Shown one piece after another: positions 26,243 through 32,610 of a stretch of 64,000 bases of DNA. The notes under the pieces are model-generated. The model saw nothing but the letters and a program-made list of their open reading frames with translations, was not told where the DNA came from and did no database searches. The stretch comes from Pseudomonadota bacterium (GTDB taxonomy: Bacteria; Pseudomonadota; Gammaproteobacteria; Nevskiales; Nevskiaceae): NCBI GenBank assembly GCA_038043245.1, contig JBBTCH010000003.1, positions 100,601 to 164,600 on the forward strand, written 5' to 3'. Made by a program: the position numbers and the translations under genes. Each line of letters opens with the position of its first letter. The stretch's first letter is position 1.

Positions 26243-29200
26243 TTAGAGTTTTCCTTCCACCCAAGCCGTCACACTGGCAATCGCTTTCGGTAAATGCTCG
26301 GGCTGCGTTCCTCCAGCCTGCGCCATGTCGGGACGGCCGCCGCCCTTGCCACCGACCTGGCCGGCGACGAAGTTCACCAGTTCACCCGCCTTCACTTTCG
26401 CGGTGAGATCGGCGGTGACGCCGGCAATCAGGCTGGCTTTGCCGTCGCTGGCTGAGCCGAGCAGGATGATGGCTGAGCCCAGCTTGTTCTTGAGCTGGTC
26501 CATCAGCGTGCGCAATCCATCTCCGTCCATGCCGTCCACCTGCGCGGCGAGCAGCTTCACGCCCTTGATCTCTTTTACCTGCGCAGACAGGTCATCACCG
26601 GCGCTCGACGCCAGCTTGCCTTTGAGCGCGGCCAGTTCCTTTTCCAGTGTTTTGGTGCGCTCCAGCGCCTGCTGGATTTTTTCCGTCAGGTCATCGGGGT
26701 TGGCGCGCAATAATCCCGCTGCATCCTTCAGTTTGTTTTCAGTGGCCTGAACATAGGCGAGGGCGTTGGCGCCTGTGACCGCCTCGACACGGCGGATGCC
26801 GGCGGCGACGCCGCCTTCGCTGACGATCTTGAAAAGGCCGATGTCGCCGGTACGCGACACATGGGTGCCGCCGCAAAGCTCAGTGCTGAACTCGCCCATC
26901 TTCAGCACGCGCACTTCGTCGCCGTACTTTTCGCCAAACAACGCCATGGCGCCGGACTTGATCGCCTCGTCGTACTTCATCAGCGTCGCCGCGACCGGCA
27001 CGTTGGCCAGCACCGCCTGATTCACCTGTTTTTCAATCTCGGCGATTTCCTCTGGCTTTACCGGCTGATTGTGCGAAAAATCGAAGCGCGTGCGCGCGTC
27101 GTCCACCAGCGAGCCTTTCTGGCTGACGTGGGTACCGAGCACGTCGCGCAGCGCCGAATGCAGCAGGTGGGTGGCGGAATGGTTGCGCTTGGTCGCCTCG
27201 CGGCGCGCGACGTCAATTTCTGCGCTGACGGTGTCGCCGGTCTTCAGCGATCCGGATTTGAGTTTGCCGTTATGCGCAAAACCGCCGCCGGCGATTTTCT
27301 GCGTGTCGCTGACCTCAAAAATTAACCCCCTCTCCCCCTTGGGGGAGAGGGTTGGGGTGAGGGGGTTGCTGCTCACCGAGCGCCCCTCACCCTGGCCCTC
27401 TCCCCGTGAAACGGGGAGAGGGGAAGTAAGAGAGCCGGTATCACCAACCTGGCCGCCGGATTCGGCATAGAACGGCGTGTGGTCGAGCACCACCACGCCT
27501 TCGCCGCCGCCGGCGAGCTGATTCACTGGCTGCCCGTTCTTGTACAGCGCCACGACTTTGGCCTTGGCGAGCTTGGTTTCCTGATAACCCTCGAAGCAGG
27601 TTGCTGCGCCATCGTATTTCAGGGTTTCGTTGGCGCCGAACTTGCTGGCCGCACGGGCGCGCGTGCGCTGCGCATCCATCTCGCGCTCGTAGCCGGCCTC
27701 GTCCAGCTTCAGGTTGCGCTCGCGCGCGATGTCGGCGGTCAGGTCAATCGGGAATCCATAGGTGTCGTAGAGCTTGAAAACAAGCTTGCCACTAATGAGT
27801 TGCTTGGAGAGTTCATGCCGCGACACAAAGTGCAATCGAAATTTTGGGCTGATGCTAGCGAGGCATTGAGATATTTCTAAATTATTTGCAGTGGTATTGC
27901 CCTCGACAACTATGTAATTTATTTCCGCAAGGTTCTTGTCAATAAGCGAGTTCTCTAATAATTGACGCGCATCTGTAAGCGCCTGCCCACCGTTGAGATT
28001 GTCGTCAGCGACTACCGCAACCACCTGTATTTTCCTGCCATCCTTTTCTATGTAACCGTCGTAATAATTTTGATTTCGGTAACCTGCAAAGATATCGGCG
28101 TTATGTTTTTCGGCGAACGACATGAAACATCTTTTCGCTGGATGCAATTCTTCCTCGAGCAGCTTCATGCCCTTGTCGAGGGTGATGGCGAAGCTGTCCT
28201 CCTCGGCACGGATCGCTTTTTCGATGGACGCCTGCTGCTGACGCAGCTGCGGATAAGCCTCGCCCATGATTTCGGCGAGCGGCGCCACCAGCTTGAAGAA
28301 GAACGGCTCGTTGAGGCCCAGCTTGTAACCGTGGCGGATGCCACGACGCATGATCCGGCGCAGCACATAGCCGCGGCCTTCGTTGGACGGCAACACACCG
28401 TCGGCGATCAAAAAGCTGGTCGCGCGAATGTGATCGGCGATGACTTTCTGCGAGGCATTGGTGTGCGGCGCCTGCTTGGCCAGCTTGGCGACTGCGCCGA
28501 TCAGGTGCTTGAAAGTGTCGGTCTGGTAGTTGTCGTGCGTGCCTTGCATCAGCGCGCAGATGCGTTCCAGCCCCATGCCGGTATCCACGCTCGGCGCCGG
28601 CAGCTTCTTCAGCTGGCCGTCGCTGCCGCGCTCGAACTGCATGAACACCAGATTCCAGATCTCGATCCAGCGGTCGCCGTCCTCGTCCTTGCTGCCCGGC
28701 GGGCCGCCGGCGATTGCCGGGCCGTGGTCGTAGAAGATTTCGCTGCACGGGCCGCAGGGGCCGGTGTCGCCCATCGCCCAGAAATTGTCTGAAACGTATT
28801 TGGCACCTTTGTCGCCGATGCGCACAATGCGGTCAGCCGGCAGGCCGATCTCCTTGTGCCAGATGTCGTAGGCCTCGTCGTCGGACTCGTACACCGTGAC
28901 CAGCAGGCGCGACTTGTCGATGCCCAGCCACTGCTTATCGGTGATGAATTCCCACGCGAAATGAATGGCGTCCTTCTTGAAGTAGTCGCCGAAGCTGAAG
29001 TTGCCGAGCATCTCGAACAGGGTGTGATGGCGCGCGGTGTAGCCGACGTTCTCAAGATCGTTGTGCTTGCCGCCGGCGCGCACGCACTTCTGCGACGACG
29101 CCGCGCGCACATACGGGCGCTTGTCCTGGCCGGTGAAAACGTCCTTGAATGGCACCATGCCGGCGTTGGTGAACAGCAGCGTCGGGTCGTTGCCGGGCAC

Positions 29201-29281
29201 GAGCGAAGACGAGGGCACCACGGTGTGGCCCTTGCTCCTGAAAAACTCCAGGAATTTCGCTCGCAGCTCATTCGTATTCAT
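26243..29281 (-). CDS. alaS: Alanine--tRNA ligase carrying two in-frame insertions (1012 aa)
   Basis: [19 protein letters not shown]..., [31 protein letters not shown] and a C-Ala domain. About 135 aa longer than the ~875-aa bacterial norm (from memory). Confidence 0.95.
27326..27424. repeat. Triple-hairpin palindromic element inside the alaS coding sequence
   Basis: CCCTCTCCCCC-tt-GGGGGAGAGGG (27328-27351). GGGGTGAGGGG...CCCCTCACCC (27354-27392). CCCTCTCCCCG-tgaaa-CGGGGAGAGGG (27396-27422). Confidence 0.8.
27797..28135 (-). other. AT-rich in-frame insertion (~112 codons) within alaS
   Basis: Hand count gives 128 G+C in the 300 nt 27841-28140 (~43%), against the GC-rich remainder of the gene. 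The reading frame is uninterrupted. Confidence 0.8.
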
Positions 29282-30180: not shown

Positions 30181-30300
30181 CACCCGCTTATGGGCATTTC
30201 ATGCCGTTTTCGGGCTCGCGATGAAAAACAGTGGTACTAAAAGTGTACCACCTGTTTTCTTGCAATCCCTGTTTCGGGCTTGAAAATGCCTCAAGCGGGT
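30181..30300. repeat. MITE-like element, copy B
   Basis: CACCCGCTTATGG ... GTGGTACTAAAAGTGTACCAC (30231-30251) ... CCTCAAGCGGGT. Confidence 0.7.
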
Positions 30301-30557
30301 TATCGATAAACGTCCTTGCGATGGCCGATTTTGATGACCTCGACGATCACCTGAGCATCGTAAATGTTGTACAGAATTCGATAATCGCCTTGGCGGATTC
30401 GATACTTCTCATCGCCAGAGAGTTTCTCCGAGCCGGGCGGCCGCGGATTGGTTTTGAGTGTCTCGGCTTTCGCGAGAATGCGCTGGACGTCGGCCTTCGG
30501 CAGGCCGCGCAGATCCTTGGCTACCGAGGCCTTGTAGCGCAACTCATAAATCGCCAT
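30300..30557 (-). CDS. RelE/ParE-family type II toxin
   Basis: 85 aa. YRIRQGDYRILYNIYDAQVIVEVIKIGHRKDVYR is typical of the ParE/RelE fold. Overlaps the antitoxin gene by 14 nt. Confidence 0.8.
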   Translation of the reverse strand: MAIYELRYKASVAKDLRGLPKADVQRILAKAETLKTNPRPPGSEKLSGDEKYRIRQGDYRILYNIYDAQVIVEVIKIGHRKDVYR

Positions 30558-30777
30558 TGGCCTTGAGTTTCTTCAGCAGTTCCTCATAGCTAAGACTCTT
30601 TTCATGCTTGCGTTCGTCGAACGCCGCGAGGTCGTCGAAATCTTCCTTGAGCGCTTGGCGTAGCGCAGCGGACACCAGATCAGAAATGGACTTGTGCGTG
30701 CTGGCCGCTTTCAGGCGCAGGGCCTGATGTACGGCCGGATCGAGGTAGACGGTGGCGCGAGTGAGGGTGGCTTGCAT
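30544..30777 (-). CDS. Ribbon-helix-helix type antitoxin
   Basis: MQATLTRATVYLDPAVHQALRLKAASTHKSISDLVSAAL, immediately upstream of the toxin. The ORF track starts at 30816; the ATG at 30777 is preferred. Confidence 0.7.
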   Translation of the reverse strand: MQATLTRATVYLDPAVHQALRLKAASTHKSISDLVSAALRQALKEDFDDLAAFDERKHEKSLSYEELLKKLKANGDL

Positions 30778-30819
30778 GAAGTGCCTTGACGTTATGACGT
30801 CAAAGCACTTTAACACGGG

Positions 30820-32181
30820 TCAAGCGGGTGTCGGCGCAGGCAGGTTTTTCAGCATCTCTTCGAGATGGTGAATGTGGTGTTCACCCTTCTGAAAGGTCTT
30901 GTCCTCAAGGATGCGCAATTGCAGTTCGGTATTGGTCTGAATCCCTTCGACGATCAGTTCTTCGAGCGCGGTGCGCATGCGCGCGATGGCCGATTCGCGG
31001 GTGTTGCCATAGGCGATCAGCTTGCCGATCATCGAGTCGTAATTGGGCGGCACGGTATAGCCGGCGTAGAGGTGGGAGTCGAGGCGGATGCCGGGACCGC
31101 CCGGCGCGTGGTACTTGGTGACGAGGCCCGGTGACGGCGCGAACGTGCGCGGATTCTCGGCGTTGATGCGGCACTCGATGGCATGGCCGCGCGGCTTGAG
31201 TTTTTCCTGCCGCAGCGTCAGACGCTCGCCGGCGGCGATGCGAATCTGTTCCTGGATCAAATCCACGTCGTAAACGCGCTCAGTCACCGGATGCTCGACC
31301 TGGATGCGCGTGTTCATCTCGATGAAGTAGAACTGGTCGTTCTCATAGAGGAACTCCATGGTGCCGGCGCCGCGATAGCCGATGCGCTGGCAGGCGTCCA
31401 CACATAGCAGACCGATCTTCTGGCGCTGTTCGGCGCTGATGCCGGGCGCGGGCGATTCTTCCAGCACCTTCTGGTTGCGCCGCTGCATCGAGCAGTCGCG
31501 TTCGCCCAGGTGCACGACATAGCCGAAGGAATCCGCCAGCACCTGCACCTCGATATGGCGCGGCGTTTCCAGATATTTTTCGAGGAACACCGAACCGTCG
31601 CGGAACGCCGCCTGCGCCTCGGTGCGCGCGATCTGGATCTTCGCGATCAGTTCATCCTCGCTGCGCACCACCTGCATGCCGCGTCCGCCGCCGCCGGCCG
31701 CAGCCTTGATCAGCACCGGATAGCCGGTTTTCTTCGCTACTTTTTTGCACACCGCCTCGTCGTCCGGCAGCACGCCTTCGGAGCCCGGCACGCAAGGCAC
31801 GCCGGCGGCGATCATCTCGGCCTTGGCCGTGGTTTTGCCGCCCATCAAGCGGATGGTTTCGGACTTGGGGCCGATGAAGACGAAACCGCTTTTCTCGACC
31901 GACTCCGCGAAGTCCGCGTTCTCCGAGAGGAATCCGTAGCCCGGGTGGATCGCCTCGGCCTGGGTGACTTCGGCGGCGCTGATGATCGCGGCCATGTTGA
32001 GGTAGCTCTTGCCGGCCGGCGGCGGGCCGATGCACACCGATTCGTCGGCGAGCAGCACGTGCTTGAGGTCGCGGTCGGCGGTGGAATACACGGCGACGGT
32101 CTTGATGCCCATCTCGCGGCAGGCGCGCAGGATGCGCAGCGCGATCTCGCCGCGGTTGGCGATTAAAACTTTTTTGAACAT
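30820..32181 (-). CDS. accC: Acetyl-CoA carboxylase biotin carboxylase subunit
   Basis: [33 protein letters not shown]... Confidence 0.95.
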
Positions 32182-32610
32182 CTACTCAATCACGAACAGC
32201 GGCTGATCGAACTGCACCGGCGTTTCGTTCTCGACCAGGATGGCGGCGATGACGCCGCCCTTGTCGGCTTCGATCTGGTTAAGCATCTTCATCGCCTCGA
32301 TGATGCACAGGGTCTGGCCCTGTTTGACCGTCTGGCCGACTTCGACAAACGACTTGGCGCCGGGCGAAGGGCAGCGGTAGAAGGTGCCGACCATCGGCGC
32401 CTTGACGGTGTGGCGAGTGTCCACGGCCGGTTTCGCGGCTGCCGCCGGGGCAGGGGCGGCCGCTGCCGGCGCGGCATAAACCGGCGCCGCCACTGCGGCG
32501 CTGGAGGCGCGGCTGAGGCGGATGGATTCCTCGCCTTCCTTGACTTCAAGCTCGGAGAGGCCGGATTGCTCCAGCAATTCCATCAGGCTCTTTATTTTTC
32601 TGAGGTCCAT
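32182..32610 (-). CDS. accB: Biotin carboxyl carrier protein
   Basis: Ala/Pro linker and the [15 protein letters not shown] biotinylation motif. Confidence 0.95.

Follow-up and report, generated by a model that had tools for sequence, protein, structure and literature searches.

Background

Inteins and homing-endonuclease insertions are found in frame within essential housekeeping genes, at one conserved site, and occur sporadically among relatives. In fungal mitochondria, LAGLIDADG endonuclease genes are fused in frame to rps3 (Gibb & Hausner 2005, as cited in PMC7902536). Rickettsia palindromic elements and other intragenic insertions of the MITE (miniature inverted-repeat transposable element) or REP (repetitive extragenic palindromic) type are also read in frame (PMC10969869), and among the aminoacyl-tRNA synthetases the INS editing domain of bacterial ProRS is an idiosyncratic insertion domain (PMC3973320). 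Alanyl-tRNA synthetase (AlaRS) is usually presented as one conserved prototype architecture across biology (PMC8887476). Here we describe Insert A, an in-frame insertion of foreign composition in the AlaRS gene (alaS) of a bacterium of the Nevskiaceae (Gammaproteobacteria, Nevskiales). The gene lies in a stretch of 64,000 nucleotides (nt), called the window throughout, which corresponds to positions 100,601 to 164,600 of contig JBBTCH010000003.1 in assembly GCA_038043245.1.

Insert A shares traits with each of these systems. Besides its in-frame position at one conserved site of an essential gene and its sporadic occurrence, it has in common with inteins and homing-endonuclease insertions a foreign composition, flanks that resemble co-conversion tracts and a nuclease-like predicted fold with a decayed active site. 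Unlike inteins, it has neither a Hint domain nor splicing residues, is shorter than mini-inteins and would have to remain in the mature protein; unlike homing-endonuclease insertions, it carries no recognised homing-endonuclease family motif. The rps3 fusion is similar in that a nuclease-type coding sequence is in frame with a translation gene and has no splicing element of its own, but it concerns an organelle, a LAGLIDADG protein and a fusion to the coding sequence (CDS), whereas Insert A is bacterial, is predicted to be PD-(D/E)XK-like and sits in an internal loop. The Rickettsia elements likewise add tolerated extra peptides in frame, in their case to unrelated, often essential genes. They measure about 150 nt, whereas Insert A has about 330-370 nt, is not palindromic, lacks terminal inverted repeats and a target duplication, occurs once within the window and belongs to a particular site in a single gene family. 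Synthetase insertion domains such as ProRS INS are, as Insert A appears to be, folded modules in a synthetase loop that are retained in the enzyme. They are old, conserved, vertically inherited and of known function, whereas Insert A appears as a recent, compositionally foreign orphan within a hypervariable set. With the PD-(D/E)XK fold Insert A shares a predicted alpha-beta-beta-beta-alpha-beta core and its best structural matches, but the (D/E)xK residues are missing, there is no match at the level of hidden Markov models (HMM) and the confidence of the model is low.

The alaS gene and Insert A

The alaS gene of the window is an uninterrupted open reading frame (ORF) of 1012 aa; the coordinates of all features are given in Table 1. 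By its sequence the product is a complete AlaRS, with the class IIc core, the second additional (editing-associated) domain and the C-terminal DHHA1/C-Ala part. Pfam matches were found to tRNA-synt_2c (PF01411, E = 1e-205), tRNA_SAD (PF07973, 1e-17) and DHHA1 (PF02272, 1e-20), and a comparison with PDB sequences matched E. coli AlaRS structures at E = 7e-194. In an alignment with 3hxu, the N-terminal fragment of E. coli AlaRS, residues 2-380 of the window AlaRS pair with 3-382 and residues 491-548 with 384-441, and about 110 residues are unmatched.

Insert A falls in the helical bundle that recognises the tRNA, in a loop that lies about 15 residues N-terminal of the invariant YDTYGFP motif. 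In a methanotroph AlaRS this bundle comprises residues 242-429 (PMC12143591). BLASTN matches between the window and the contig of the closest ortholog (L002) end at window position 28152 and restart at 27781. Insert A puts 370 nt where the ortholog has 43, which adds a net 327 nt (109 codons). At both of its ends it includes alaS-homologous yet divergent, AT-rich codons (EELHPAK... and ...KQLISGKL).

The composition sets the patch apart from its surroundings. Positions 27797-28135 have a GC content of 0.431 against a window mean of 0.625 (standard deviation, sd, 0.038), that is, 5.1 sd lower, and form the lowest-GC 339-nt stretch of the 64-kb window; the runner-up has 0.493. GC stays at 0.40-0.46 across 150-nt segments of Insert A, and G+C at third codon positions (GC3) is 0.47 vs 0.81 in the remainder of alaS. 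The coding frame has no stop, the other five frames have 3, 8, 6, 6 and 6, and 74 of 200,000 shuffled patches were free of stops (chance 3.7e-4). At the sequence level Insert A is a real, in-frame, apparently translated and compositionally foreign insertion in the tRNA-recognition region of AlaRS.

A previous reading of the window, made from its letters only (the sequence-only reading), had described alaS as open for 1012 aa with about 112 extra residues, of about 43% GC in a GC-rich gene and read as part of AlaRS. The structural alignment, the GC and GC3 values and the stop-free frame agree with this. The boundaries that it proposed, 27797-28135, hold for the core, and the true patch is slightly wider (27782-28151). 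Its remark that the other five frames are full of stops was somewhat overstated, as stops are found in all five but number 3-8 in each.

Empty site in relatives and probable donor

The 120 best AlaRS matches are all of the Nevskiales type (Solimonas, Fontimonas, Stenotrophobium, Sinimarinibacterium and metagenome-assembled genomes (MAGs) of Nevskiaceae), with lengths of 865-987 aa. Among these 120, only the 987-aa protein P0108 comes near the 1012 aa of the window. The nearest relative, P0001 on contig L002, has 92% aa identity and 87% nt identity to the window gene and lacks the insert. The gene order prmA-alaS-ask is the same as in the window, with 83-88% nt identity flanking the inserts on both sides, and the loop is the one typical of Nevskiales (…LLEDAVGKLENGVIPGDVVFKLYD…). 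In an alignment of 15 sequences, P0108 is the only relative with a comparable insert at the site of Insert A. Since P0001 has the loop typical of the order, Insert A is a gain in the window lineage, and a horizontal gain is supported because the site is empty in this 92%-identical ortholog. The comparison shows that the gain followed the split from the nearest sequenced relative.

The 3' junction codons (KQLISGKL) are AT-rich and homologous to native GVIPGDV, with 12 of 22 nt matching L002 vs 87% gene-wide. The triplet ISG in place of IPG was found solely in insert-bearing alleles. Such AT-rich, alaS-homologous junction codons point to an insert-bearing alaS allele as the donor, recombining in conserved flanks. 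The source of Insert A was probably another alaS allele that already carried an insert, not random foreign DNA; of the earlier view of a foreign insertion, the foreign composition stands and an origin from random DNA is improbable. In the contig of P0108 (L003), the insert has a GC of 0.43-0.47 vs 0.63, and the AT-rich tract runs on beyond it into diverged alaS, by some 55 nt on the upstream side and some 125 nt on the downstream side.

Insert A is found with identical sequence in another public assembly of this organism (contig CAYIMO010000065 of GCA_964364465.1). A chimeric join is very unlikely because of this identical sequence and the preserved frame.

In the same sister assembly, alaS is spread over two contigs (L001 and L004) with a 55-nt overlap at window positions 26363-26417, towards the 3' end of alaS. 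L004 departs from the window at 6 positions, and 43 nt at its other end (window ~32164-32187) have no match, which suggests strain heterogeneity or branching of the assembly graph around the alaS locus.

Inserts in the same loop of other alaS genes

Other alaS genes with an enlarged loop were collected by a DNA pattern in which the anchors EE[DE]xF and YDTYGFP lie 132-151 codons apart, vs the usual ~31; it was validated on the window and on L003. The scan returned at least 71 loci in GTDB species genomes and at least 71 in JGI metagenomes. The region is in frame and free of stops in all but one (L135) of 142 pattern-matched loci, and of the 143 regions analysed, 140 were stop-free across 600 nt or more of flank as well. 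One hit, L012 (Waltera hominis JBBMFB010000016), was discarded as a false positive, its translation (…NPMLRWCDNILRKAAWWPVLG…) not being AlaRS.

Inserts of 100-125 aa thus occur in frame at the same loop in at least 140 other alaS genes from several phyla, and Insert A is not the one-off graft that the sequence-only reading had implied. Carriers include many Verrucomicrobiota, Chloroflexota/Dehalococcoidia, Burkholderiales, Lentisphaerae, Kiritimatiellales and several Gammaproteobacteria (Lysobacteraceae, Rhodanobacteraceae, Dokdonella, Methyloglobulus and Nevskiaceae). The 143 inserts form 53 BLASTP clusters. Inspected by eye, they divide broadly into an all-helical kind, in Verrucomicrobiota and Chloroflexota, and an alpha/beta kind, in Proteobacteria, to which Insert A belongs.

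Within the Nevskiales, P0108 has a different insert of about 115 aa at the exact site of Insert A, and no BLASTP similarity was found between the two. Both other Nevskiales carriers, P0108/L003 and L048, have inserts unrelated in sequence to Insert A, and no mutual sequence similarity was detected among the three. We consider the alaS loop shown, by these comparisons, to be a hotspot for a large, fast-evolving set of cassettes in several phyla.

A different kind of insert was seen in P0005 (a JGI AlaRS of 948 aa), which has a low-complexity Gly/Asp/Ser segment (NPALFGDGFGDGSGDGSGHGSGHGSGAGSGDGSGNDERVG) in the same loop, at alignment columns ~560-650. The alaS loop therefore also tolerates simple-sequence expansions.

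Composition and divergence of the inserts

Composition was surveyed in 140 loci (L003, L005-L146), with 1.2 kb of alaS as the flank. The mean GC3 of the inserts is 0.58 vs 0.78 in the flanks, and the difference reaches 0.53; the deficit exceeds 0.2 in 77 loci and 0.3 in 43. With 0.47 vs 0.81, Insert A is typical among the 140. Low GC3 holds inside clusters that have diverged to 34-58% identity, which indicates that it persists rather than ameliorates. The AT-richness of Insert A alone is therefore not proof of a recent arrival, an AT-shifted GC3 being a general and persistent property of the cassettes. It may result from relaxed selection, from exclusion of the inserts from GC-biased recombination or from their continual exchange.

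The clusters differ in tempo. In three of the five clusters tested, those that are AT-rich, insert and flank divergence are uncorrelated (Spearman rho = 0.10, 0.04 and -0.03), with an aa identity of 18-65% in the inserts vs 62-83% in the host. The ratio pN/pS is 0.3-0.9 in inserts vs 0.24-0.46 in flanks, with synonymous sites near saturation. Constraint on the inserts thus appears relaxed but non-zero. The Burkholderiales cluster has 30 members (L026, L045, L046, L062, L063, L067, L069, L070, L074 and 21 metagenome loci), a GC3 of 0.875 vs 0.92 in the flanks and 20 invariant positions. Here insert identity follows flank identity (rho = 0.50, p = 4e-10), and the insert looks like an old, vertically inherited, probably functional domain of AlaRS that was exapted.

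The closest insert to Insert A is that of L017, a Lysobacteraceae MAG (Smith-Waterman z = 4.4, p ~0.002 with 500 shuffles); the remaining inserts, helical controls included, scored at chance in the same comparison. The two share the junction motif LHP and a segment Y(Y/F)xDGxxExxDGxxxVxVVAD(D/N)(N/Q). In a search with a profile of L017 and L125, Insert A ranked first among all non-member inserts (E = 0.055). The alaS flanks of L017 have an identity of 0.52 to the window, vs 0.64 for the Nevskiales carriers L003 and L048, so relatedness of the inserts is decoupled from that of their hosts.

Database searches and exclusion of known elements

Insert A had no match in Pfam (E <= 1 or E <= 10), PHROGs, NCBIfam or PDB sequences, in a phmmer search of 1.84 billion representative proteins, or in a word-indexed search of 5.8 billion proteins. 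The word-indexed search also missed P0108 when queried with an exact 120-aa substring of it, so its negatives for short queries are weak, and in the representative library, which is clustered at 50% identity, an AlaRS with an insert may be masked by a representative that lacks one. No match came from pattern scans with the back-translated sequence in GTDB genomes, IMG/VR or JGI metagenomes, and blastn and tblastn against phages and plasmids gave no similarity. Neither blastn nor tblastn found a second copy within the window. As an internal promoter or terminator, only one weak sigma-70-like match was found, no better than in shuffled sequences.

Known element types were considered in turn. An intein is ruled out, as there is no Hint/intein match in Pfam or NCBIfam, the splice residues are absent and 109 aa is below mini-intein size. 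The dipeptide HN does not occur in Insert A, nor does a C-terminal His-Asn followed by Cys, Ser or Thr; the N-terminal junction has a Cys close by (RCFMSF), which does not coincide with the boundary. An intron or ribozyme is likewise ruled out, since Rfam cmscan (E <= 1) over 27300-28600 was empty within 27782-28151. A repeat of the MITE, REP or Rickettsia palindromic (RPE) type is ruled out by flanking direct and inverted repeats at chance level and by the single copy in the window.

These results match what the sequence-only reading had remarked, namely that the segment has no recognisable motif and no intein hallmarks. It had proposed to look for the segment as a free gene or in other host genes, and no free-standing homolog turned up in the searches run. 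That reading knew of no described AlaRS insertion of this kind, and a full-text literature search found none. The sequence of Insert A appears to be an orphan, and the class of cassettes at this alaS loop across phyla appears undescribed.

Predicted fold of the inserted domain

A single-sequence AlphaFold2 (AF2) model of Insert A has the order alpha-beta-beta-beta-alpha-beta-alpha-beta, at a low overall confidence (predicted local distance difference test, pLDDT, 60). Its elements are H8-19, E23-29, E33-40, E43-51, H58-72, E82-87, H91-102 and E109-112, and the best-modelled part is the first helix with the three-strand meander (pLDDT 60-73 in the helix block, 73-78 in the strands). As a prediction, this fits the small alternating beta/alpha domain envisaged before any modelling. 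The low-confidence model has the core order of the PD-(D/E)XK fold, alpha-beta-beta-beta-alpha-beta. Asp35 lies in beta2, and beta3 (RKIQVVAVV) is without (D/E)xK, with V-A-V where these residues would be expected. For the P0108 insert, AF2 (pLDDT 69) gave the same element order with one extra short terminal strand.

Structural searches with Foldseek gave mixed results. Against PDB, the top match of Insert A was the RPB5 chain of the African swine fever virus (ASFV) RNA polymerase (E = 4e-4, template modelling (TM) score 0.49-0.57), and the others were mixed. Against viral models the matches were nonsignificant and included RPB5, a DUF2726 protein and a named PD-(D/E)XK nuclease. The N-terminal domain of RPB5 is, we presume, an inactive member of the PD-(D/E)XK (restriction-endonuclease-like) fold superfamily. 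For the P0108 insert the matches were weak (E = 3e-3 to 1e-1, TM 0.35-0.51) and many were proteins of restriction-endonuclease fold: XisH-like 2okf (TM 0.51/0.53), NucS/EndoMS, Can2, Card1, Cdn1, EcoO109I, the R2 endonuclease (RLE), Bax1, PaqCI and RPB5. Inserts of the Burkholderiales cluster had sub-threshold Pfam matches to Mrr_cat (E = 0.0032), AHJR-like (0.074) and the SfsA RE domain (0.079), which we take to be members of the PD-(D/E)XK clan.

A multiple alignment of the alpha/beta inserts revealed a common Asp in strand 2, a hydrophobic strand 4, and a final strand followed by S/T-x-x-(D/E)-L ahead of the resumed AlaRS sequence. The motif D…(D/E)xK is intact in some Burkholderiales copies, as D...E-V-K (e.g. 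FDAVFHRPAEEVLVEVKK), partial in P0108 (D…EVVR) and missing in Insert A (D…VAV) and L017 (D…IVA). We predict, with moderate confidence, that Insert A is a restriction-endonuclease-like domain without catalytic activity. Judging by the model, it is almost certainly not a nuclease at present.

Origin and maintenance of Insert A

On balance, we lean towards Insert A being a horizontally acquired, recombination-borne passenger domain whose frame is preserved because the gene around it is essential and under selection. The native loop was replaced after the split from the closest sequenced relative, and the stretch of about 370 nt that took its place would have come from a foreign, insert-bearing alaS allele. 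The junction codons suggest both this donor and the route, which would be homologous recombination in the highly conserved flanks (...GMKLLE on one side). Following the low-confidence models, the cassette would encode an autonomous restriction-endonuclease-like domain of about 110 aa in which the nuclease residues of beta3 are replaced. It would project from the loop of the tRNA-recognition bundle and, given the preserved frame and the lack of a splicing element, would stay in the mature enzyme. As alaS is essential, a frameshift or stop in the cassette should be lethal and precise deletion should be rare. The cassette may persist in frame as a tolerated passenger, with relaxed protein constraint and AT-shifted codons, and selection on the essential host gene, not on the cassette itself, would keep the frame open.

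Several points weigh against this account. The AT-rich junctions could stem from local evolution after the insertion and not from co-transfer, and the donor was not found in protein, genome, viral, metagenome and plasmid searches. In Burkholderiales the invariant residues, the host-like GC3 and the co-divergence make some inserts look functional, so that the term passenger is an argument from absence. The homology of Insert A to any other insert rests on borderline statistics, and for the pair of clusters compared by hhalign, those of Burkholderiales and Xanthomonadales, no similarity emerged. As to the fold, no Pfam HMM of any PD-(D/E)XK family matched Insert A, both insert models are single-sequence models of low to moderate confidence, and the Foldseek E-values are 1e-4 to 1e-1.

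Three other origins are far less probable. That Insert A is a lineage-typical domain, inherited vertically in the AlaRS of Nevskiales, might be thought from the inserts of similar size at the same site in P0108/L003 and L048, but is highly improbable. Presence in close relatives was looked for, and the aligned nearest AlaRS lack it except P0108, the 92%-identical syntenic ortholog being among those without; the three Nevskiales inserts are dissimilar in sequence, and the GC3 of Insert A falls 0.34 short of the host gene's. Even less credit can be given to an assembly chimera or misjoin that placed unrelated AT-rich DNA into alaS. The assembly is of the metagenome type and the sister MAG is fragmented, with a contig break within alaS at 26363-26417, but the patch keeps the frame open for all of its 370 nt (p = 3.7e-4), has alaS-homologous junction codons, is identical in the second assembly and shares its architecture with at least 140 other alaS genes. 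Just as improbable is an intein, intron or bypass element that is removed to leave a mature AlaRS without the segment. Such an element would suit an in-frame insertion in a conserved essential gene with a Cys near the N-terminal junction; against it stand the missing Hint/intein profile, the missing C-terminal His-Asn with nucleophile, the small size and the lack of an Rfam intron or ribozyme, and an intron would not need a kept reading frame.

Two more serious competitors remain, which we rank second and third. An adaptive accessory domain is a minority possibility. It could provide extra binding of RNA, DNA or protein, regulation, or a varying surface that evades a toxin or phage factor targeting AlaRS, and selection would then favour the exchange of cassettes. 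The Burkholderiales cluster, with its 20 invariant positions, host-like GC3 and rho of 0.50, speaks for it, as do pN/pS values below 1 in several clusters and the location in the tRNA-recognition helical bundle (boundaries from PMC12143591); the repeated independent acquisitions argue for some benefit. Insert A, however, is an orphan without conserved relatives, so there is no sign of constraint on Insert A specifically, and the closest relative functions without an insert. The inserts are also unrelated in sequence and apparently differ in fold, which is hard to fit to one function, and the AT-shifted codons and fast divergence suggest weak selection. Third, and doubtful, comes a homing element that does not splice: the descendant of a PD-(D/E)XK homing endonuclease that became an in-frame AlaRS domain, of which Insert A would be a remnant decayed after fixation. 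The nuclease would have cut insert-free alaS at the loop and been copied in by repair with co-conversion of the flanks. In its favour, the same site of a highly conserved essential gene is occupied in many genomes, and in Proteobacteria and Nevskiales the occurrence is sporadic; the nearest Nevskiales AlaRS examined lack an insert except P0108. The foreign flanks resemble co-conversion tracts (the window junctions, and ~55 and 125 nt in L003), the predicted fold is nuclease-like, and catalytic residues are kept in patches (D...EVK in some Burkholderiales; E, D and E in P0108) and lost in Insert A. In the AT-rich clusters the inserts diverge independently of their hosts (rho = 0.0-0.1), and a precedent is offered by fungal mitochondrial rps3 with its in-frame LAGLIDADG fusion (PMC7902536). 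Yet no copy can be confidently predicted as an active nuclease, and the E of ExK varies freely even in the best-conserved cluster. Many inserts of Verrucomicrobiota and Chloroflexota look all-helical by eye, so nuclease drive cannot cover the whole hotspot; a free-standing homolog was not found by phmmer, pattern scans or phage and plasmid searches, and the fold assignment is weak. The wider proposal, that the alpha/beta proteobacterial cassettes are a new class of selfish element, namely in-frame PD-(D/E)XK homing genes without intein or intron that later decayed (Insert A) or were exapted (the Burkholderiales cluster), we regard as more speculative again. Such elements would depend on a surface loop that tolerates them, the host enzyme carrying the nuclease along as one more domain.

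Other features of the window

A second, independent in-frame insertion, Insert B, lies inside alaS, with 114 nt vs 12 nt in the ortholog (+34 codons). It contains three nested hairpins (CCCTCTCCCCG...CGGGGAGAGGG, etc.) and occurs once within the window. Related peptides are found at its site in P0009 and P0003, and different GC-rich repeats in P0005, P0008 and P0004. Rfam gave sub-threshold hairpin matches to it, and all sub-threshold matches over 27300-28600 fall within Insert B. In appearance it is an in-frame element of the REP/MITE type, comparable to the Rickettsia palindromic elements.

Between accC and prmA, positions 30231-30816 form an AT-shifted island (GC 0.47-0.53), the second most AT-rich of the window, which holds a pair of ORFs of toxin and antitoxin type (Table 1).

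Table 1. Position and supporting evidence of the features of the alaS locus
Feature	Position	Strand	Evidence
alaS CDS, host gene	26243-29281	minus	ORF, Pfam, E. coli structures, prmA-alaS-ask synteny
Insert A, entire foreign AT-rich patch	27782-28151	minus	BLASTN and nucleotide alignment vs L002, GC, GC3, stop-free
Inserted-domain core of the sequence-only reading, 113 aa (K RCFMSF...SKQ L)	27797-28135	minus	translation
3' junction, alaS-homologous codons of foreign composition	27782-27805	minus	KQLISGKL vs GVIPGDV in insert-free relatives
Helix alpha1 (predicted)	28106-28141	minus	AF2 residues 8-19, block pLDDT 60-73
Antiparallel meander beta1-beta3 (DIFAGYR / YYDGYIEK / RKIQVVAVV, predicted)	28010-28096	minus	AF2 pLDDT 73-78
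alpha2-beta4-alpha3-beta5 half (predicted, lower confidence)	27827-27991	minus	AF2 pLDDT 47-71
Insert B, GC-rich hairpin-forming REP/MITE-like element read in frame	27320-27433	minus	BLASTN boundaries vs L002
ParE/RelE-type toxin ORF	30300-30557	minus	in AT-shifted island
Antitoxin ORF	30544-30816	minus	Pfam RH3_dom on called gene, in AT-shifted island

Conclusions

A single loop of the tRNA-recognition bundle of AlaRS is a hotspot for hypervariable, compositionally anomalous inserts of whole-domain size, and in several lineages these have been swapped independently of the host gene. The loop is a place where an essential synthetase naturally tolerates inserted domains, and alaS, which is frequently used as a marker gene, can be mosaic. 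The cassettes offer a tractable system for asking why an intragenic segment keeps a GC3 that is 0.2-0.5 below its surroundings. They also make it testable whether a homing nuclease can spread in frame without splicing machinery. If Insert A were indeed a decayed homing element without splicing, it would be new in kind, its nearest precedents being the rps3-LAGLIDADG fusions (PMC7902536) and the Rickettsia palindromic elements (PMC10969869).

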